Assembly: GCA_027492795.1 (NCBI GenBank) | Contig: JAPUEB010000035.1 | Span: 63,221-127,220 of the forward strand | Origin: Chryseobacterium sp. | Lineage (GTDB): Bacteria > Bacteroidota > Bacteroidia > Flavobacteriales > Weeksellaceae | Reading direction: 5' to 3' | DNA length: 64,000 bases | Shown: piece after piece, positions 6,215 to 47,768 of the stretch | How the letters are laid out: each line of letters starts with the position of its first letter | How positions within the stretch are numbered: the first letter of the stretch is position 1 | Translations under genes and position numbers: made by a program | Notes under the pieces: model-generated | Told to the model about the DNA's origin: nothing | Seen by the model: the letters and a program-made list of their open reading frames with translations, nothing else | The model's database searches: none

Positions 6215-6934
6215 TTACAAAACTAATCCCTCAAAATTTCTGAAGGCGAGAAGTTTTTCAGTGGTAAAACCTTCTGCAAAATCACAACCTGAAAGCCTGC
6301 CTAAATTTTGGGCGCGGTAAGTAAGACTTTCTAAAAAATCTTTCGTTGCGATTGGAGTTACAGGTTCATTGGAATTTGGATCGTAAAACTGCGTTTTGAA
6401 AGCGAGACAAGCCTCAATTTTTTTATCCATAACATTCGAAATATCTACCACAAAATCTGGTGTTATTTCTTTCCATTGAATATAATGAAAAACCTGTTTC
6501 GGACGCCAAACTTCCTGATTTTTTCCTTCTAGAGAAGTTTCTATTTTCCGAAGTCCCGACAAAAAACAAGCATCCGAAACCAATTTCGAACCTTTCCCGT
6601 GATCCGGATGACGATCTTCTATGGAATTACAAAAAACAATTTCGGGACGGTATTTTCTTATCATTTTCACGACTTTTAGCTGGTGTTCTTCATCGTTTTT
6701 GAAAAAACCATCTCTCATTTCCAGATTTTCCCGATAAGAAATTCCTAATATTTTTGATGATTCCTCTGCTTCAGCTTTACGTGTTTCGTCTGTTCCCCTT
6801 GTTCCCAATTCTCCTTTGGTAAGATCCACTATGGCAACTGTTTTTCCCTCGGAAATAAGTTTCGCAAGCGTTCCGCCACAACCAAGTTCTACATCGTCAG
6901 GATGCGCGCCAAATGCTAATATATCTACTTTCAT
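6215..6934 (-). CDS. bshB1: Bacillithiol biosynthesis deacetylase BshB1 (LmbE/PIG-L family)
   Basis: MKVDILAFGAHPDDVELGCGGT...HPDH motifs. The longer track start (TTG at 6955) falls inside a -7 box. Confidence 0.8.
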   Translation of the reverse strand: MKVDILAFGAHPDDVELGCGGTLAKLISEGKTVAIVDLTKGELGTRGTDETRKAEAEESSKILGISYRENLEMRDGFFKNDEEHQLKVVKMIRKYRPEIVFCNSIEDRHPDHGKGSKLVSDACFLSGLRKIETSLEGKNQEVWRPKQVFHYIQWKEITPDFVVDISNVMDKKIEACLAFKTQFYDPNSNEPVTPIATKDFLESLTYRAQNLGRLSGCDFAEGFTTEKLLAFRNFEGLVL

Positions 6935-36508: not shown

Positions 36509-37354
36509 TTATTGTTCAAGGTTTTTTGGTGGTTTGTTTTTATTTAAAATTGTCTTTGCATTTTTGGAACTTACCACTCTATTTCCTGTGCTTTCTTCCA
36601 AACGTTCACGCGCAACTTTTGCAACATCGCCTCCTTTTTTCGCAACTTCAATATTTTCATCTAAATTTTTAGGATTTACGGTTTGGGAAATATCTTTAGT
36701 GGATGCTTCCGCTAACATATTCAAAATCAATTCAGTATTTGTCATATGGTCGCGAAGATTTTCTTTTTTTAAATCTTTCAGTTTTTTATATTCTTTTGTA
36801 GATTTTCCTGACCAAGTTTTAGTGATAACATCTGTAAGAATAGCAAACTGAAGACCTTCCTTCATTCCTCTCTTCTTCCATTCATCTGTCAATTCTTTAC
36901 GAATTTCTATACTTTTCAAACGCTGATTTATCCAATTTTCTGAATATCCTAATTGCAAATATTCCTTCATTGCACGCTCTACCGTAAGTTCCGGATTTTG
37001 CATTTCATCCAATCTTTCATTGGCAATTTTCGCTAACCAAAGTTTAAATGGCTCCGCTTTTGGTGAAGGAATGGACTGAATTAAGCGAAAAAGTTGTTCT
37101 GTGTCTGCAACATCTGTTTTGTAAAATTTTCCGTCCGCAGATTTCATTTTCAGTTGACTACAATTTGTAGTCAACTCACTTCCTTCCTTTTTTAATCGGG
37201 TTTTTAGTACGCTCCAGTATTTTCGTGCATTTGGGCTTTCTGTTAAAACCTCAATTACATCAACGATAGAAAAATACCATTTTTCCTGTTCGTCATCCCA
37301 AATCGTACGAACTTTTTTGGATTCAAAAAGTTGTATTGCGTTTTTTTGTGTCAT
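36509..37354 (-). CDS. dinD: DinD-like DNA-damage-inducible protein with N-terminal Bro-N domain
   Basis: 281 aa. FESKKVRTIWDDEQEKWYFSIVDVIEVLTES...LFRLIQSIPSPKAEPFKLWLA. Confidence 0.7.
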   Translation of the reverse strand: MTQKNAIQLFESKKVRTIWDDEQEKWYFSIVDVIEVLTESPNARKYWSVLKTRLKKEGSELTTNCSQLKMKSADGKFYKTDVADTEQLFRLIQSIPSPKAEPFKLWLAKIANERLDEMQNPELTVERAMKEYLQLGYSENWINQRLKSIEIRKELTDEWKKRGMKEGLQFAILTDVITKTWSGKSTKEYKKLKDLKKENLRDHMTNTELILNMLAEASTKDISQTVNPKNLDENIEVAKKGGDVAKVARERLEESTGNRVVSSKNAKTILNKNKPPKNLEQ

Positions 37355-38085: not shown

Positions 38086-40533
38086 TCAAATCTCAAATTT
38101 CAAATTGTTTAAATAATAATTCAATTGCCCGAAACTGATATTCTCATCATTTGGAGAGAGTTTTTCGTGAAAATGTAAATTAAATTTTTCGCCCAAAACG
38201 TCAATCGCCATATCTACTAATAATGCATTTTGCCAAACGCCACCGGAAAAAGCCAAGTGTTTTTCCTCTGTCACACTGAGCTTGTCAAAGTGTCTATCGA
38301 CAATTTTTTCAATAAATTTAATTAAAGTGTTGTGAAAATTTAGTCCGATTTCTCCGGCGTTTTTTCCTGAAAGTTTTTCATCTAAAATTTTATCAAAAAG
38401 TTTTTTTGTCGGAAGATTTTCAGAAGTTTCGTTTTCTAAATAATCAGTTAATCTGTGAACATCTGTGCAAAATTTTTCCTGAGAAATTTTCTCCAACCAC
38501 ATTGCAGATTCTCCTTCAAAATAAATTGGTTTTTCATAGCCCAAAACAAAAGCAACAGCATCAAAAAAACGTCCCATTGATGAAGTTTTGATTTCCGATT
38601 TATCAATGAGATTGGTGTAGATTTTCCATTCGTTTTCGTCAAAGAATTTTTTAAAAAAAATTAGATTTCGCACCTTCGGCGCTCCGCAATTCACGCCCTC
38701 ATCTTTCATTGGGCTTTGCCCAATGCTGTTGATTTCCGCCACTTCGTGGCTCAAATTGTGTTCATCAACCTTTTTGTTAAAGAAAATTGAAAGTGCGGAA
38801 ATTTTTGGTGTTTTGGACATTTTATCGCCTAAAATCCAAGCGAAATTTTCTAATTGTGAGGTTCGTGTTATTTTTGGATGTCGCACCTTCGGCGCTCCGC
38901 AATTCTCGTCCTCAATTTTCATTGGTCTTTGCCCAATGCTGTTGATTATCGCCACTTTGTGGCTGTTTTCTAAACTTTCAATTTCTGAATTTTCATACAT
39001 AAAAAATTCGCCGCCCCAAATTTCTGTTTCAGTTCCGAAACCGATGCCGTCCCAAATTATACCGAGAACTTTTTCTTTTTCCCAAAGTTTTTTTTCGCCT
39101 AAAATGGAAGCGAAATGTGCTTTGTGATGTTGGATTTTTTGGTTGCTCACAGATTTCCACAGATTTCCACAGATTTTTTGATTTTCATATCGTGGATGTA
39201 GGTCTGAAAGAATAAGATTTGGTTGAAAATTGAAAATTTTTTGATATGATTTTATCGTGTTTTCAAATCTTTCGTAGGTTTCAAAATTGGCCAAATCGCC
39301 GATGTATTCTGAAATATAAACGTGATTGTTTGGAACAACGGCGAACGTGTTTTTCAAATCTCCACCCAAACATAAAATTTTATTCTTTTGATAATTTTTT
39401 TCTGACAATTCATCCGCGAAAAAATAGTTTGGCGCAAAACCTCGTGAACGTCGGAAAATGATTTTTTGTTGGTGTTTTGGAGAAAATTTTATCACAGAAT
39501 CATCTTGTGGATGTTGAATTTCCAAAGTATTGTGCAAGAAAAAATCGGCGATTTTCCATAAAATAGTTTCGGCTTCTTCTGTGGTGGAACAAATCGGCGA
39601 ACCGTGAAAATTTCCGCTGGTTGCGATGAGCGGTTTTCCGAAAACTTTGGAAATGAGTTTCAGCGTTCCGGAATACGGAAACATTGCGCCAATCGTGTTC
39701 ATATTTGGCGAAATTTCTTCTATTGCCAAATCTTTTTTGTCTTTGATTTTTGTAACGATAATCGGACTTTCTGAAGACTTGAAATGCTGGATTTGTAGTT
39801 CGGAAACTTCTAAATATTCCTGCATTTTTTCAATTCCTGAAAACAAAACCGCGAAAGGTTTTGTTGGTCTGCGTTTGCCTTTTCGCAGTTCTGAAACGGC
39901 TTCGGGATTGGTTGCATCACACATTAATAAATAGCCTGCGGTATTTTTCAAAGCAATAATTTTCCCTTTGGCTAATTCTTCGGCTAATTTTTCAAAAATT
40001 TGTTTGTTTGTGCCTTTGAAATCGTTTCCCTGATGGTCTTTTAACCAAATTTGAATGCCACATTTCGGACAGGAATTGGTTTGGGAATGAAAACGAACGT
40101 CATCAGGATTTTTATATTCTTCCAAACAATTTGGACACATTTTGAACACTTCAATCGCCGTGTTTTCACGTTCAAAAGGGAATTTTTTCGCGATGGAATA
40201 ACGTGGTCCACATTGTGTGCAAGTCGTGAAAGGATAAAAATAGCGGGGATTTTTCTCGTCAAAAATTTCGGTTTCGCAATTTTCGCAGGTTGCAAAATCG
40301 GGCGTCAATGGAATGTCAACAACGATGTCTTTTTTCGTGGGTTTGATGAAGAAATTTTCAAAAACTTCGGTGGTTGCTATATCTTTGATTTCGGAGAAAA
40401 TGATTTCGGAAGATTTGGGTTTTCGTTCGTGAATTGCTTTGAAAAATGCGTAAGAACCTTCGCCTTGACAAATAATGATGACGCCCAATTCGTCATTTGA
40501 AACGTAACCTTTCAGTCCGTATTCTTCTGCCAA
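38086..40533 (-). CDS. hypF: Carbamoyltransferase HypF. The coding frame actually stays open to 40612, and three repeat insertions lie in frame
   Basis: Zn-finger CxxC pairs (CENC..CTQCGPRY, CPNC..CPKCG), YrdC-like and Kae1-like domains. The acylphosphatase motif GRVQGVGFRPF lies upstream of the track's TTG start. Confidence 0.85.
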   Translation of the reverse strand: MAEEYGLKGYVSNDELGVIIICQGEGSYAFFKAIHERKPKSSEIIFSEIKDIATTEVFENFFIKPTKKDIVVDIPLTPDFATCENCETEIFDEKNPRYFYPFTTCTQCGPRYSIAKKFPFERENTAIEVFKMCPNCLEEYKNPDDVRFHSQTNSCPKCGIQIWLKDHQGNDFKGTNKQIFEKLAEELAKGKIIALKNTAGYLLMCDATNPEAVSELRKGKRRPTKPFAVLFSGIEKMQEYLEVSELQIQHFKSSESPIIVTKIKDKKDLAIEEISPNMNTIGAMFPYSGTLKLISKVFGKPLIATSGNFHGSPICSTTEEAETILWKIADFFLHNTLEIQHPQDDSVIKFSPKHQQKIIFRRSRGFAPNYFFADELSEKNYQKNKILCLGGDLKNTFAVVPNNHVYISEYIGDLANFETYERFENTIKSYQKIFNFQPNLILSDLHPRYENQKICGNLWKSVSNQKIQHHKAHFASILGEKKLWEKEKVLGIIWDGIGFGTETEIWGGEFFMYENSEIESLENSHKVAIINSIGQRPMKIEDENCGAPKVRHPKITRTSQLENFAWILGDKMSKTPKISALSIFFNKKVDEHNLSHEVAEINSIGQSPMKDEGVNCGAPKVRNLIFFKKFFDENEWKIYTNLIDKSEIKTSSMGRFFDAVAFVLGYEKPIYFEGESAMWLEKISQEKFCTDVHRLTDYLENETSENLPTKKLFDKILDEKLSGKNAGEIGLNFHNTLIKFIEKIVDRHFDKLSVTEEKHLAFSGGVWQNALLVDMAIDVLGEKFNLHFHEKLSPNDENISFGQLNYYLNNLKFEI
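38668..38751 (-). repeat. 84-bp palindromic element, copy A, in frame in hypF
   Basis: tcgcaccttcggcgctccgcaattcacgccctcatctttcattgggctttgcccaatgctgttgatttccgccacttcgtggct. Encodes SHEVAEINSIGQSPMKDEGVNCGAPKVR. Confidence 0.85.
38881..38964 (-). repeat. 84-bp palindromic element, copy B, in frame in hypF
   Basis: About 90% identical to copy A and in the same orientation. Encodes SHKVAIINSIGQRPMKIEDENCGAPKVR. Confidence 0.85.
39146..39175. repeat. CACAGATTT-type tandem repeat inside hypF
   Basis: ctcacagatttccacagatttccacagatt. Related to the arms of the inverted repeat at 40889-40980. Confidence 0.7.
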
Positions 40534-40608
40534 ATTGAAAATAAATGGGCGAAAACCTACACCTTGAACGCGCCCTGAAATATGGATTTCTGTTGTTTTG
40601 ATGATAAT

Positions 40609-40755
40609 TTTTTAAACGCAAAGAGCGCAAAGATTTTTTTAAATGTTTGAAAATATTTTTAAGTTCGCAAATCGTTGATTCGCTGATTCCTCTAAAAATA
40701 ATAAAAATTTCAGAGGCAAAGATTCATCTAAAGATGAATTGCAATGTTCGCAAAG
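40609..40755. repeat. CGCAAAG-family element, copy 1 (abuts the hypF 5' end)
   Basis: ttttttaaacgcaaagagcgcaaagattttttta...caaagattcatctaaagatgaattgc..cgcaaag. Both ends are shared with 41507-41606. Confidence 0.75.
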
Positions 40756-40983: not shown

Positions 40984-41571
40984 TTAATTTTTTCTAATTT
41001 CATTAACCAATTCCAAAACCATTTCCGTGACTTTAGGGATGGCTGCAGCGACTTTCGGGGATAATTCTAAATACATCGGTTCCATTTTGGAAATCGTGAC
41101 GGTGTAAAGATAAATGTTCGGCATTTTTTCCATAAAGGTCAGAATATCAACCATATCTTTGAGCCCGAAATTGTGTCCGCTTAATGAAACGGGGAAATCT
41201 TCGGAAAATTTTGGTTTTAAAAGCGTGATGCTTCCTTCTTCTTTTCCGTCCATTGTTGCATCTACAATGATGACGTGTTCGTGACTTTCAATGTAGGGAA
41301 CCAAAGAAAAACCGCCAGTTCCCCCGTCCATAAAAGTTATTTTTTCGGGAAATTTTGTGGTGTCCAAATTTTTGATGAATTGAACGCCAATTCCTTCGTC
41401 GCCCATTAAATAATTGCCGATTCCGAGAATGAGGATGTTGTTTCCGTCGGAATGGAAGGAATCTGTGGTGTATTGAAATGTTTCTGTGTTTTTTTCCAAT
41501 TCTATATTTTTTAAACGCAAAGAGCGCAAAGGTTTTTTTATAATTTCTTGAAAATATTTTAAGATAAACAA
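40984..41571 (-). CDS. hyaD: [NiFe] hydrogenase maturation endopeptidase (HyaD/HupD family). Start uncertain
   Basis: ILILGIGNYLMGDEGIGV and ..IIVDAT.. motifs. The N-terminal about 25 aa of the track ORF are a translation of the CGCAAAG repeat. Confidence 0.8.
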   Translation of the reverse strand: MFILKYFQEIIKKPLRSLRLKNIELEKNTETFQYTTDSFHSDGNNILILGIGNYLMGDEGIGVQFIKNLDTTKFPEKITFMDGGTGGFSLVPYIESHEHVIIVDATMDGKEEGSITLLKPKFSEDFPVSLSGHNFGLKDMVDILTFMEKMPNIYLYTVTISKMEPMYLELSPKVAAAIPKVTEMVLELVNEIRKN

Positions 41572-41606
41572 AGATTCATCTAAAGATGAATTGCGAAGAC
41601 CGCAAA
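41507..41606. repeat. CGCAAAG-family element, copy 2 (overlaps the hyaD 5' end)
   Basis: ttttttaaacgcaaagagcgcaaaggttttttta...caaagattcatctaaagatgaattgcgaagaccgcaaa. Confidence 0.75.
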
Positions 41607-45902: not shown

Positions 45903-46244
45903 ATGCACGAACTTTCCATCGCGACCTCTATTTTGAAAACTGCCGAAGAAGAAGTTGCGAAAATAAAAGGCAAAAAAGTGACAGAAATCTTCCTTGAAAT
46001 TGGTAAAATTTCGGGGGTTGAAATGTCATCGCTCACTTTTGTTTGGGATTTGTGTATGAAAGACAGCGTTTTGGACGGCGCAAAAGTCCACATTTCCGAA
46101 CCCGAAGGTTTTGCAAGATGTGCAGAATGTGACCACGAATTCAAAATTCAACATATTTTTGATACGTGCGAAAAATGCGGAAGTCCTTTCAAAGAAATTG
46201 TGACAGGAAAGGAAATGAAAATTAGGAAATTGTTGATTAGTTGA
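45903..46244 (+). CDS. hypA: Hydrogenase nickel incorporation protein HypA
   Basis: 113 aa. Starts MHELSI and has two CxxC pairs (CAEC, CEKCG). Confidence 0.9.
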   Translation: MHELSIATSILKTAEEEVAKIKGKKVTEIFLEIGKISGVEMSSLTFVWDLCMKDSVLDGAKVHISEPEGFARCAECDHEFKIQHIFDTCEKCGSPFKEIVTGKEMKIRKLLIS

Positions 46245-47314: not shown

Positions 47315-47474
47315 AACCACAAAAGGAACAAAAGAATTGATGCTGTTTTAAGGATTACAAAAGAATACAAAAGTTTAGAAATCAAAGATTTCTATTTTGT
47401 GAAATTTTAAAACGCAATATATTCCATCTTTGATTGCTTCGTACCTCGCAAAGACTCTTTTGTGACTTTTGTAT
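47315..47474. repeat. CACAAAAG-family inverted-repeat element in the hypB-hypC spacer
   Basis: aaccacaaaaggaacaaaag and ttacaaaagaatacaaaagt face ctcttttgtgacttttgtat. Related to 32857-33035. Confidence 0.5.
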
Positions 47475-47513
47475 TTTAAAAAAAATAGAACTTTTGGTTT
47501 AAAAACAAAACTT

Positions 47514-47768
47514 ATGTGTTTAGCAATCCCAGGAAAATTAGAAAGCATCACGACCAAGCTCGACGAAACCTTCCGTATTGGAAGCGTTGATTTTGAAGGC
47601 ATCAAAAAGGAAGTCAATCTCGCATTGGTTCCCGAAGCGAAAATTGGCGACTACGTTTTGGTTCACGTTGGTGCCGCAATTGGAATTATTGATGAAGAAG
47701 AAGCCCAAAAAACAATGGACGCGCTGAAATTAATGGGCGAAGATTTGGAATTGGATTCGGAATCCTAA
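47514..47768 (+). CDS. hypC: Hydrogenase assembly chaperone HypC
   Basis: Starts MCLAIPGKL (essential Cys2), so the longer track ORF start is rejected. Confidence 0.9.
   Translation: MCLAIPGKLESITTKLDETFRIGSVDFEGIKKEVNLALVPEAKIGDYVLVHVGAAIGIIDEEEAQKTMDALKLMGEDLELDSES

Follow-up and report, generated by a model that had tools for sequence, protein, structure and literature searches.

The hypF gene of this Chryseobacterium sp. probably begins at an AUC codon, at positions 40602-40600 of the minus strand, where near-cognate initiation would produce an intact, full-length HypF at low translation efficiency. The window, that is the whole stretch of DNA analysed, comprises 64,000 nt (assembly GCA_027492795.1, contig JAPUEB010000035.1, positions 63,221-127,220 of the forward strand; the genome is called G000 in the comparisons), and by database names the nearest relatives are Cloacibacterium, family Weeksellaceae. 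The initial annotation had pointed out that the acylphosphatase part of hypF lacks a canonical start codon, and had offered either initiation at a rare AUU/AUC codon or removal of the original start by a repeat inserted upstream. The lack of a canonical start is borne out by a codon-by-codon reading of the minus strand: from the upstream in-frame TAA to the TTG at 40533 that automatic annotation uses as the start, the hypF frame holds no ATG, GTG or TTG. The frame is open as described, except that the upstream positions were all one base off (the TAA occupies 40614-40612 and not 40613-40615). The features to which we refer are the following:

38086-40602, minus strand: full proposed hypF coding sequence, 838 codons plus TGA (38088-38086), with all HypF domains
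40531-40533, minus strand: TTG used as the start by automatic annotation, really an internal Leu (in N-L-A), to judge from TTA, CTT and CTG in orthologues
40534-40599, minus strand: codons 2-23, KTTEIHISGRVQGVGFRPFIFN, first beta-strand and phosphate-binding loop of the acylphosphatase domain (from PF00708, the codons of seven genomes and 3vth/4g9i)
40600-40602, minus strand: ATC (AUC), proposed initiation codon of hypF, which would be read as fMet (from orthologue starts and Met1 of 4g9i)
40603-40608, minus strand: near-cognate ATC (40605-40603) and ATT (40608-40606), possible minor alternative starts, in G000 only
40603-40617, minus strand: leader TTTAAAAAATTATC, rich in A (including -3 and -6) and lacking a Shine-Dalgarno sequence (12-sequence comparison, PMC6847099)
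40612-40614, minus strand: in-frame TAA that closes the hypF frame upstream
40609-40755, unstranded: copy of an intergenic repeat family that is dispersed in the genome and carries CTTTGCG boxes, abutting the hypF start and leaving the gene uninterrupted
40619-40630, minus strand: two TTG triplets inside the repeat, in frame +2 relative to hypF, with an open 45-codon ORF (40630-40493)
40984-41571, minus strand: hyaD, HycI-type hydrogenase maturation protease (PF01750), 5' of hypF

Downstream of the TAA, the frame reads AAA (40611-40609), ATT (40608-40606), ATC (40605-40603) and ATC (40602-40600), followed by K-T-T-E-I-H-I-S-G-R-V-Q-G-V-G-F-R-P-F-I-F-N and then by the TTG at 40533-40531. Codons 2-23 are AAA ACA ACA GAA ATC CAT ATT TCA GGG CGC GTT and CAA GGT GTA GGT TTT CGC CCA TTT ATT TTC AAT. 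The only canonical triplets in the two other frames between 40660 and 40534 are TTG 40630, TTG 40621 and GTG 40562.

The identity of the product as a HypF is clear from its domains. The 26 codons before TTG 40533 had been said to hold the first strand and the VQGVGFR motif of the acylphosphatase domain, and it is indeed there that the Pfam match to PF00708 starts (59.8 bits, profile positions 2-84 of 85, from residue E8 of the stop-to-stop frame), so that this match requires translation to start at or before the codon at 40602. The 815-aa product started at the TTG has no PF00708 match in the precomputed annotation, and the missing 5' piece is therefore integral to the acylphosphatase domain. 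The remaining domains all score above the Pfam cut-offs (PF07503 in two stretches, PF01300, PF17788 and PF22521), which completes the HypF set of acylphosphatase, two zf-HYPF, YrdC/Sua5 and Kae1-like HypF_C and HypF_C_2 domains. Domain order and hyp gene context are those of canonical HypF (E. coli HypF; 3vth, 4g9i), and the N-terminus aligns to the structures 3vth, 4g9i and 1gxt. In the Thermococcus kodakarensis protein (4g9i), M1-K2-A-Y-H-I-H-V-Q-G pairs with I1-K2-T-T-E-I-H-I-S-G here, Met1-Lys2 matching our N-terminus residue for residue. Two things set this gene apart from canonical HypF: its start is ATC instead of ATG, and its C-terminal domain carries some 100 extra residues in the form of two in-frame repeat copies. 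This insertion (38653-38979, minus strand; query residues about 545-653) extends beyond the orthologues and contains a hairpin-rich, roughly 91-nt unit present twice with 89% identity; about 15 more, weaker copies of the unit lie elsewhere in the genome. Database HypF proteins fall into length groups of about 759, 796 and 837 residues, which suggests a variable copy number of this unit.

Evidence for the AUC start comes from orthologues. In samples of 401 genomes each from the family and the order, true hypF orthologues were present in 19 and 11 genomes, respectively (G000 is counted in either sample, and G192 is shared by the two); we aligned their codons around K-T-x-E-I-H-I-S-G-R-V-Q-G-V-G-F-R-P. 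Five genomes (G001, G155, G143, G202 and G215) have ATG as the codon preceding the Lys, three (G192, G016 and G176) have TTG, which is one codon off in G027 and G130, and seven (G000, G070, G175, G010, G194, G185 and G114) have ATC; other Flavobacteriales families have ATG or TTG at this position or within one codon of it. Because both the ATG/TTG starts of the orthologues and M1 of 4g9i align there, ATC 40602-40600 is the positional equivalent of the initiator Met, and it is thus the third of the three Ile codons that is homologous to the orthologue starts. Initiation at ATT 40608 or ATC 40605, which would lengthen the product by one or two residues, is possible as a minor alternative. Of the three codons, however, only ATC 40602 is conserved; at the positions of the other two, G070 for example has ACT and G185 has AAT. 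One further genome with ATC at the homologous codon, G447 from another family, was rejected as an independent case, as it has in-frame ATGs 13 and 16 codons upstream.

Five metagenome contigs, reached through truncated or odd gene calls, also have ATC at the hypF start position. The codon is thereby invariant in 12 sequences (Cloacibacterium species, metagenome contigs and G000) that represent about nine distinct upstream contexts, namely G000; G070, G175 and L080; G010; G194; G185 and L081; G114; L078; L082; and L083. On this comparison, the ATC is biology and not a sequence error. Six of the roughly nine contexts offer no in-frame canonical start (G000, G070, G175, G010, G194, G185 and L078). 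The G070 frame reads TAA ACT ATC, with the stop two codons upstream and the ATC as the sole near-cognate option, and that of G175 and L080 reads TAA ATT ATC; in all three the TAA is the hyaD stop, 3 nt before the hypF ATC. In G114, L082 and L083, the repeat supplies an in-frame TTG or GTG 4-9 codons upstream, from which gene callers derive products beginning MRLCVKKNIIKT..., MAITIKTQ... and MRKINIKTY..., and in these three the ATC need not be the actual start.

The codons that follow the ATC evolve as coding sequence. Across the seven ATC genomes, the DNA of codons 2-23 varies at 15 of 22 codons and the residue at only two (codon 4, and codon 21 with I/V), from which it follows that these codons are translated. 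The sequence upstream cannot be aligned across the same genomes, the alignment breaking down immediately before the ATC, and so the coding signal begins at the ATC itself. The invariance of the ATC is weak statistically when taken alone, as 7 of the 22 neighbouring codons are invariant too. With a start homologous to ATG and TTG, kept in about nine contexts and directly followed by sequence under selection, the earlier suggestion of a rare AUU/AUC start is well supported, and we infer that AUC is the codon actually used.

We consider it very improbable that hypF instead starts at the annotated TTG 40533, in which case an 815-aa HypF would be without its first strand and VQGVGFRP loop, the 23 preceding codons forming an untranslated leader. 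This TTG is the first canonical start in the frame and the one chosen by gene callers, and some HypF proteins are reported to be functional without N-terminal domains, e.g. the short HypF1 of Ralstonia eutropha. Such a start is nevertheless at odds with the coding pattern of codons 2-23, and the cut would fall inside a domain, at the cost of its PF00708 match, and not between domains. Moreover, G114 has TTA at this position and more distant orthologues have CTT or CTG; judged by this alignment, TTG 40533 is an ordinary Leu codon and not a conserved start. We found no contigs elsewhere that encode the 815-aa product.

A maximum-likelihood DNA tree of hypF, built with the first 30 codons excluded and to be read as one of related sequences with small counts, gives some depth to the ATC state. 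G185, G000, G194, G114 and G010, all ATC, form successive basal branches; the ATG forms are nested within this grade and in turn enclose G070 and G175, so that the tree requires three changes of the ATC label. Since the ATC forms make up a basal grade, the ATC state has persisted through several speciations. The simplest reading of the tree would be that ATC is old in the clade and was replaced by ATG in the crown group, and that the 5' end of hypF was reshuffled or recombined more than once.

The repeat that abuts the gene deserves separate consideration. The family has about 28 BLAST matches in the genome, with units ending in TTTAAAAAA, and a second copy (41507-41606) stands before hyaD, its 27-nt 3' end CTTTGCGCTCTTTGCGTTTAAAAAAT being identical to that of the hypF copy. 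Insertion of the repeat had been put forward as the event that removed the original hypF start. The alignment does not support this view, as the start position is retained and differs from ATG in the third base alone. Comparison with relatives free of the repeat, as the initial annotation had advised, found the same ATC in G070, G175 and L080; given this and the conserved position, the repeat did not remove the start. As to the accompanying idea of a truncated or poorly expressed HypF, low expression from a weak start is likely, but it looks like a retained feature and not like damage. A role of the repeat as an outward promoter was also considered and rejected, about 15 of the 28 copies facing a nearby gene start, which is about what chance would give, and inspection of the copies by eye found no convincing TAnnTTTG/-33 TTG arrangement.

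The TTG triplets of the repeat are in frame with hyaD and one base out of frame with hypF. One of them (40630 or 40621) could serve as the hypF start if the frames were joined by a one-base assembly error in the T3A6 run, by transcriptional slippage on A6 or by a +1 shift at AAA-AAT. Dropping one A of A6 does bring TTG 40630 in frame, and the homologous TTG is in frame, and called as the hypF start, in G114-type relatives. We give this possibility, which could at most apply to this genome, very little weight, for several observations oppose it: (i), the hyaD copy has the same 27-nt end including T3A6, which speaks against a misassembled homopolymer in the copy at hypF. (ii), G000 and G114 differ in this region by three indels and not by one. 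(iii), the homologous TTG of G010, G194 and G185 yields only an unusable TTG-CGT-TAA, and the ATC is kept. (iv), the ATC is likewise kept where there is no repeat (G070, G175 and L080) and, (v), a run of six A is short for slippage, and AAT does not count among the slow codons. The two out-of-frame TTGs could also draw ribosomes into the 45-codon ORF that overlaps the hypF start region (40630-40493, minus strand, with the second TTG at 40621). If translated, this ORF would interfere with initiation at the hypF ATC.

Relatives in which a stop codon lies close to the ATC raise the question of how ribosomes arrive there. AUC initiation might take place by termination-reinitiation, a ribosome that finishes a nearby upstream frame restarting at the next near-cognate codon. 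The hyaD stop 3 nt before the ATC in G070, G175 and L080 would suit this, as would the mini-ORF TTG-CGT-TAA that ends 7-10 nt before the ATC in G010, G194, G185 and G114. Here, on the other hand, no canonically started ORF terminates close to the ATC, the frame closed by the TAA being startless and the TTG ORF running on to 40493. Because neither this genome nor L078 has the arrangement it is not universal, and we regard reinitiation as a most unlikely account of the start as compared with direct initiation at the AUC.

The surroundings of the gene bear on whether a working HypF is made at all. The window contains a complete group-1-like [NiFe] hydrogenase set. The minus strand encodes the hydrogenase small subunit, large subunit, cytochrome b and the HycI-type protease HyaD; next come hypF, genes for an FKBP and a Bro-N protein, hypD and a gene for a NicO/HupE-like permease. 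The genes hypA (45903-46244), hypB, hypC (47469-47768) and hypE are on the plus strand. The Bro-N domain gene (36509-37354, minus strand) sits in this maturation row between hypD and FKBP/hypF. The start codon could conceivably have been lost, leaving hypF barely expressed or silent as an early pseudogene, with a hydrogenase that is inactive or matured otherwise. The want of a canonical start fits such decay, as do the two in-frame repeat insertions in hypF and the operon spacers filled with repeats. This too seems unlikely. The 838-codon frame is open here, and frames of about 750-800 codons are open in every ATC relative (about 750-840 over all relatives); the ATC forms a long-lived basal grade in the gene tree and the HypF N-terminus is under strong purifying selection. 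Finally, hyaABC, hyaD and hypA-E are all intact, and a working HypF is therefore needed.

How, then, would the AUC be recognised? A stands at -3 in all 12 ATC sequences and at -6 in nine of them, the sense strand of the spacer being about 38% A. The hypF ATC is preceded by no Shine-Dalgarno-like sequence, and no significant local RNA structure is predicted around it (z = -0.91). The absence of a Shine-Dalgarno sequence is what one would expect in Bacteroidota: the ribosomes of Flavobacterium johnsoniae ignore such sequences, and initiation there is stimulated by A at -3, -6, -12 and -13 (PMC6847099, PMC7797042). The A residues at -3 and -6 before the hypF ATC match these Kozak-like determinants (PMC6847099). 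The genome carries a normal initiator tRNA-fMet(CAU) and contains no initiator-like tRNA with a GAU anticodon, its tRNA-Ile(GAU) having a paired 1:72 end; we thus discarded the idea of a special tRNA reading AUC as an initiator. Elsewhere in the genome (contig C10, 14878-15030), two adjacent, similar tRNAs were noticed, an Ile(GAU) with encoded CCA followed 2 nt on by a CAU tRNA, with AT-rich acceptor stems unlike those of the other Met/Ile-CAU tRNAs of the genome; the pair may belong to a mobile element or a phage.

We thus propose that AUC 40602-40600 would be read as fMet by the ordinary initiator tRNA(CAU), producing an 838-residue HypF with its whole acylphosphatase domain. The site would probably be specified by the unstructured A-rich leader with its A at -3 and -6, in a lineage (Weeksellaceae, near Cloacibacterium) that makes no use of Shine-Dalgarno pairing. 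Where a Shine-Dalgarno anchor is missing, a near-cognate codon is expected to initiate very inefficiently, and so weak a start would probably hold the catalytic maturation enzyme HypF at a low level. HypF output may also respond to IF3, if E. coli infC is a guide (references cited in PMC7797042).

The infC gene is the closest precedent. In this genome (contig C23, ~6430-6700, outside the window) it reads TAA AAT TTT AAT ACA ATA GCA CAG AAA..., with no canonical start before the conserved N-terminus. The ACA-ATA-GCA-CAG at the start is conserved in most Weeksellaceae relatives (loci L054-L077), several family genomes have an infC without an in-frame canonical start before the HQINEKIR motif, and ATC replaces the ATA in one relative (G009, L066). 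For F. johnsoniae, LC-MS/MS and mutagenesis demonstrated that infC starts at ATA (PMC7797042); in E. coli, the near-cognate start of infC (IF3) is AUU. The infC genes of this genome and family show the near-cognate pattern of F. johnsoniae infC, within the same class that is blind to the Shine-Dalgarno sequence. Like infC, hypF shows a conserved AUH where the initiator Met would be expected and lacks a canonical start. It differs from infC in its codon (ATC as against ATA or ATT) and in its product, an enzyme of hydrogenase maturation that is not known to be linked to IF3; nor is any autoregulatory logic evident.

Another precedent, this time for ATC itself, is dnaA of Deinococcus deserti, whose ATC start was proven by N-terminal proteomics (PMC2830850). 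In D. deserti, D. radiodurans and D. geothermalis the ATC start of dnaA is kept across related species and missed or misplaced by annotation, as is the one proposed for hypF here; the phylum and the gene are different, and the Deinococcus start is proven by proteomics whereas that of hypF is proposed from sequence comparison. A genome-wide scan for ATA, ATT and ATC starts, by codon log-odds of the stretch preceding the first canonical start, ranked hypF 121st and infC 301st of 359, and these low ranks mean that such a scan has no power on 20-25 codons. Our search of the literature on the Cloacibacterium hydrogenase or on hypF start codons returned nothing relevant.

The proposed AUC start has direct consequences for public annotation. 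The hypF of Cloacibacterium sp. TD35 (G070, L033) is annotated twice at NCBI with differing N-termini: WP_274780799.1 starts at an internal ATA (MSGRV...) and WP_446715125.1 at the TTG (MAEEF...), and neither record uses the ATC 3 nt after the hyaD stop. Among the best 120 database clusters, about 20 are called from internal TTG, GTG or ATA codons, a pattern that, as far as sequences tell, is the signature of the ATC-only form. Gene finders drop the first 23 HypF residues, most likely because the start is ATC. When the call is made at an internal TTG or GTG, the catalytic acylphosphatase loop is lost and an intact hypF appears damaged; placing the start of hypF at the ATC corrects this.

The mechanism of near-cognate initiation is already known, and the hypF case reveals no new one. 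What is new is a conserved AUC example on hypF, in a Bacteroidota lineage blind to the Shine-Dalgarno sequence, with turnover between ATG, TTG and ATC at a single codon. Start choice here cannot lean on a Shine-Dalgarno sequence, and the hypF locus is therefore usable as a natural substrate for the study of near-cognate initiation and of start-codon turnover. It is tempting to go further and to speculate, as a possibility that we rate below even chances, that selection has long kept the AUC as a way of setting expression for hydrogenase maturation, in a lineage that ignores the Shine-Dalgarno sequence, the start being defined by the A(-3) leader alone; switching between ATG, TTG and ATC would then act as a rheostat, to which termination-reinitiation (hyaD stop, 3 nt, AUC) would have been added in some species. 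If this is true, these bacteria would provide a natural test of near-cognate start choice without Shine-Dalgarno pairing, and a test of IF3-linked control beyond infC.
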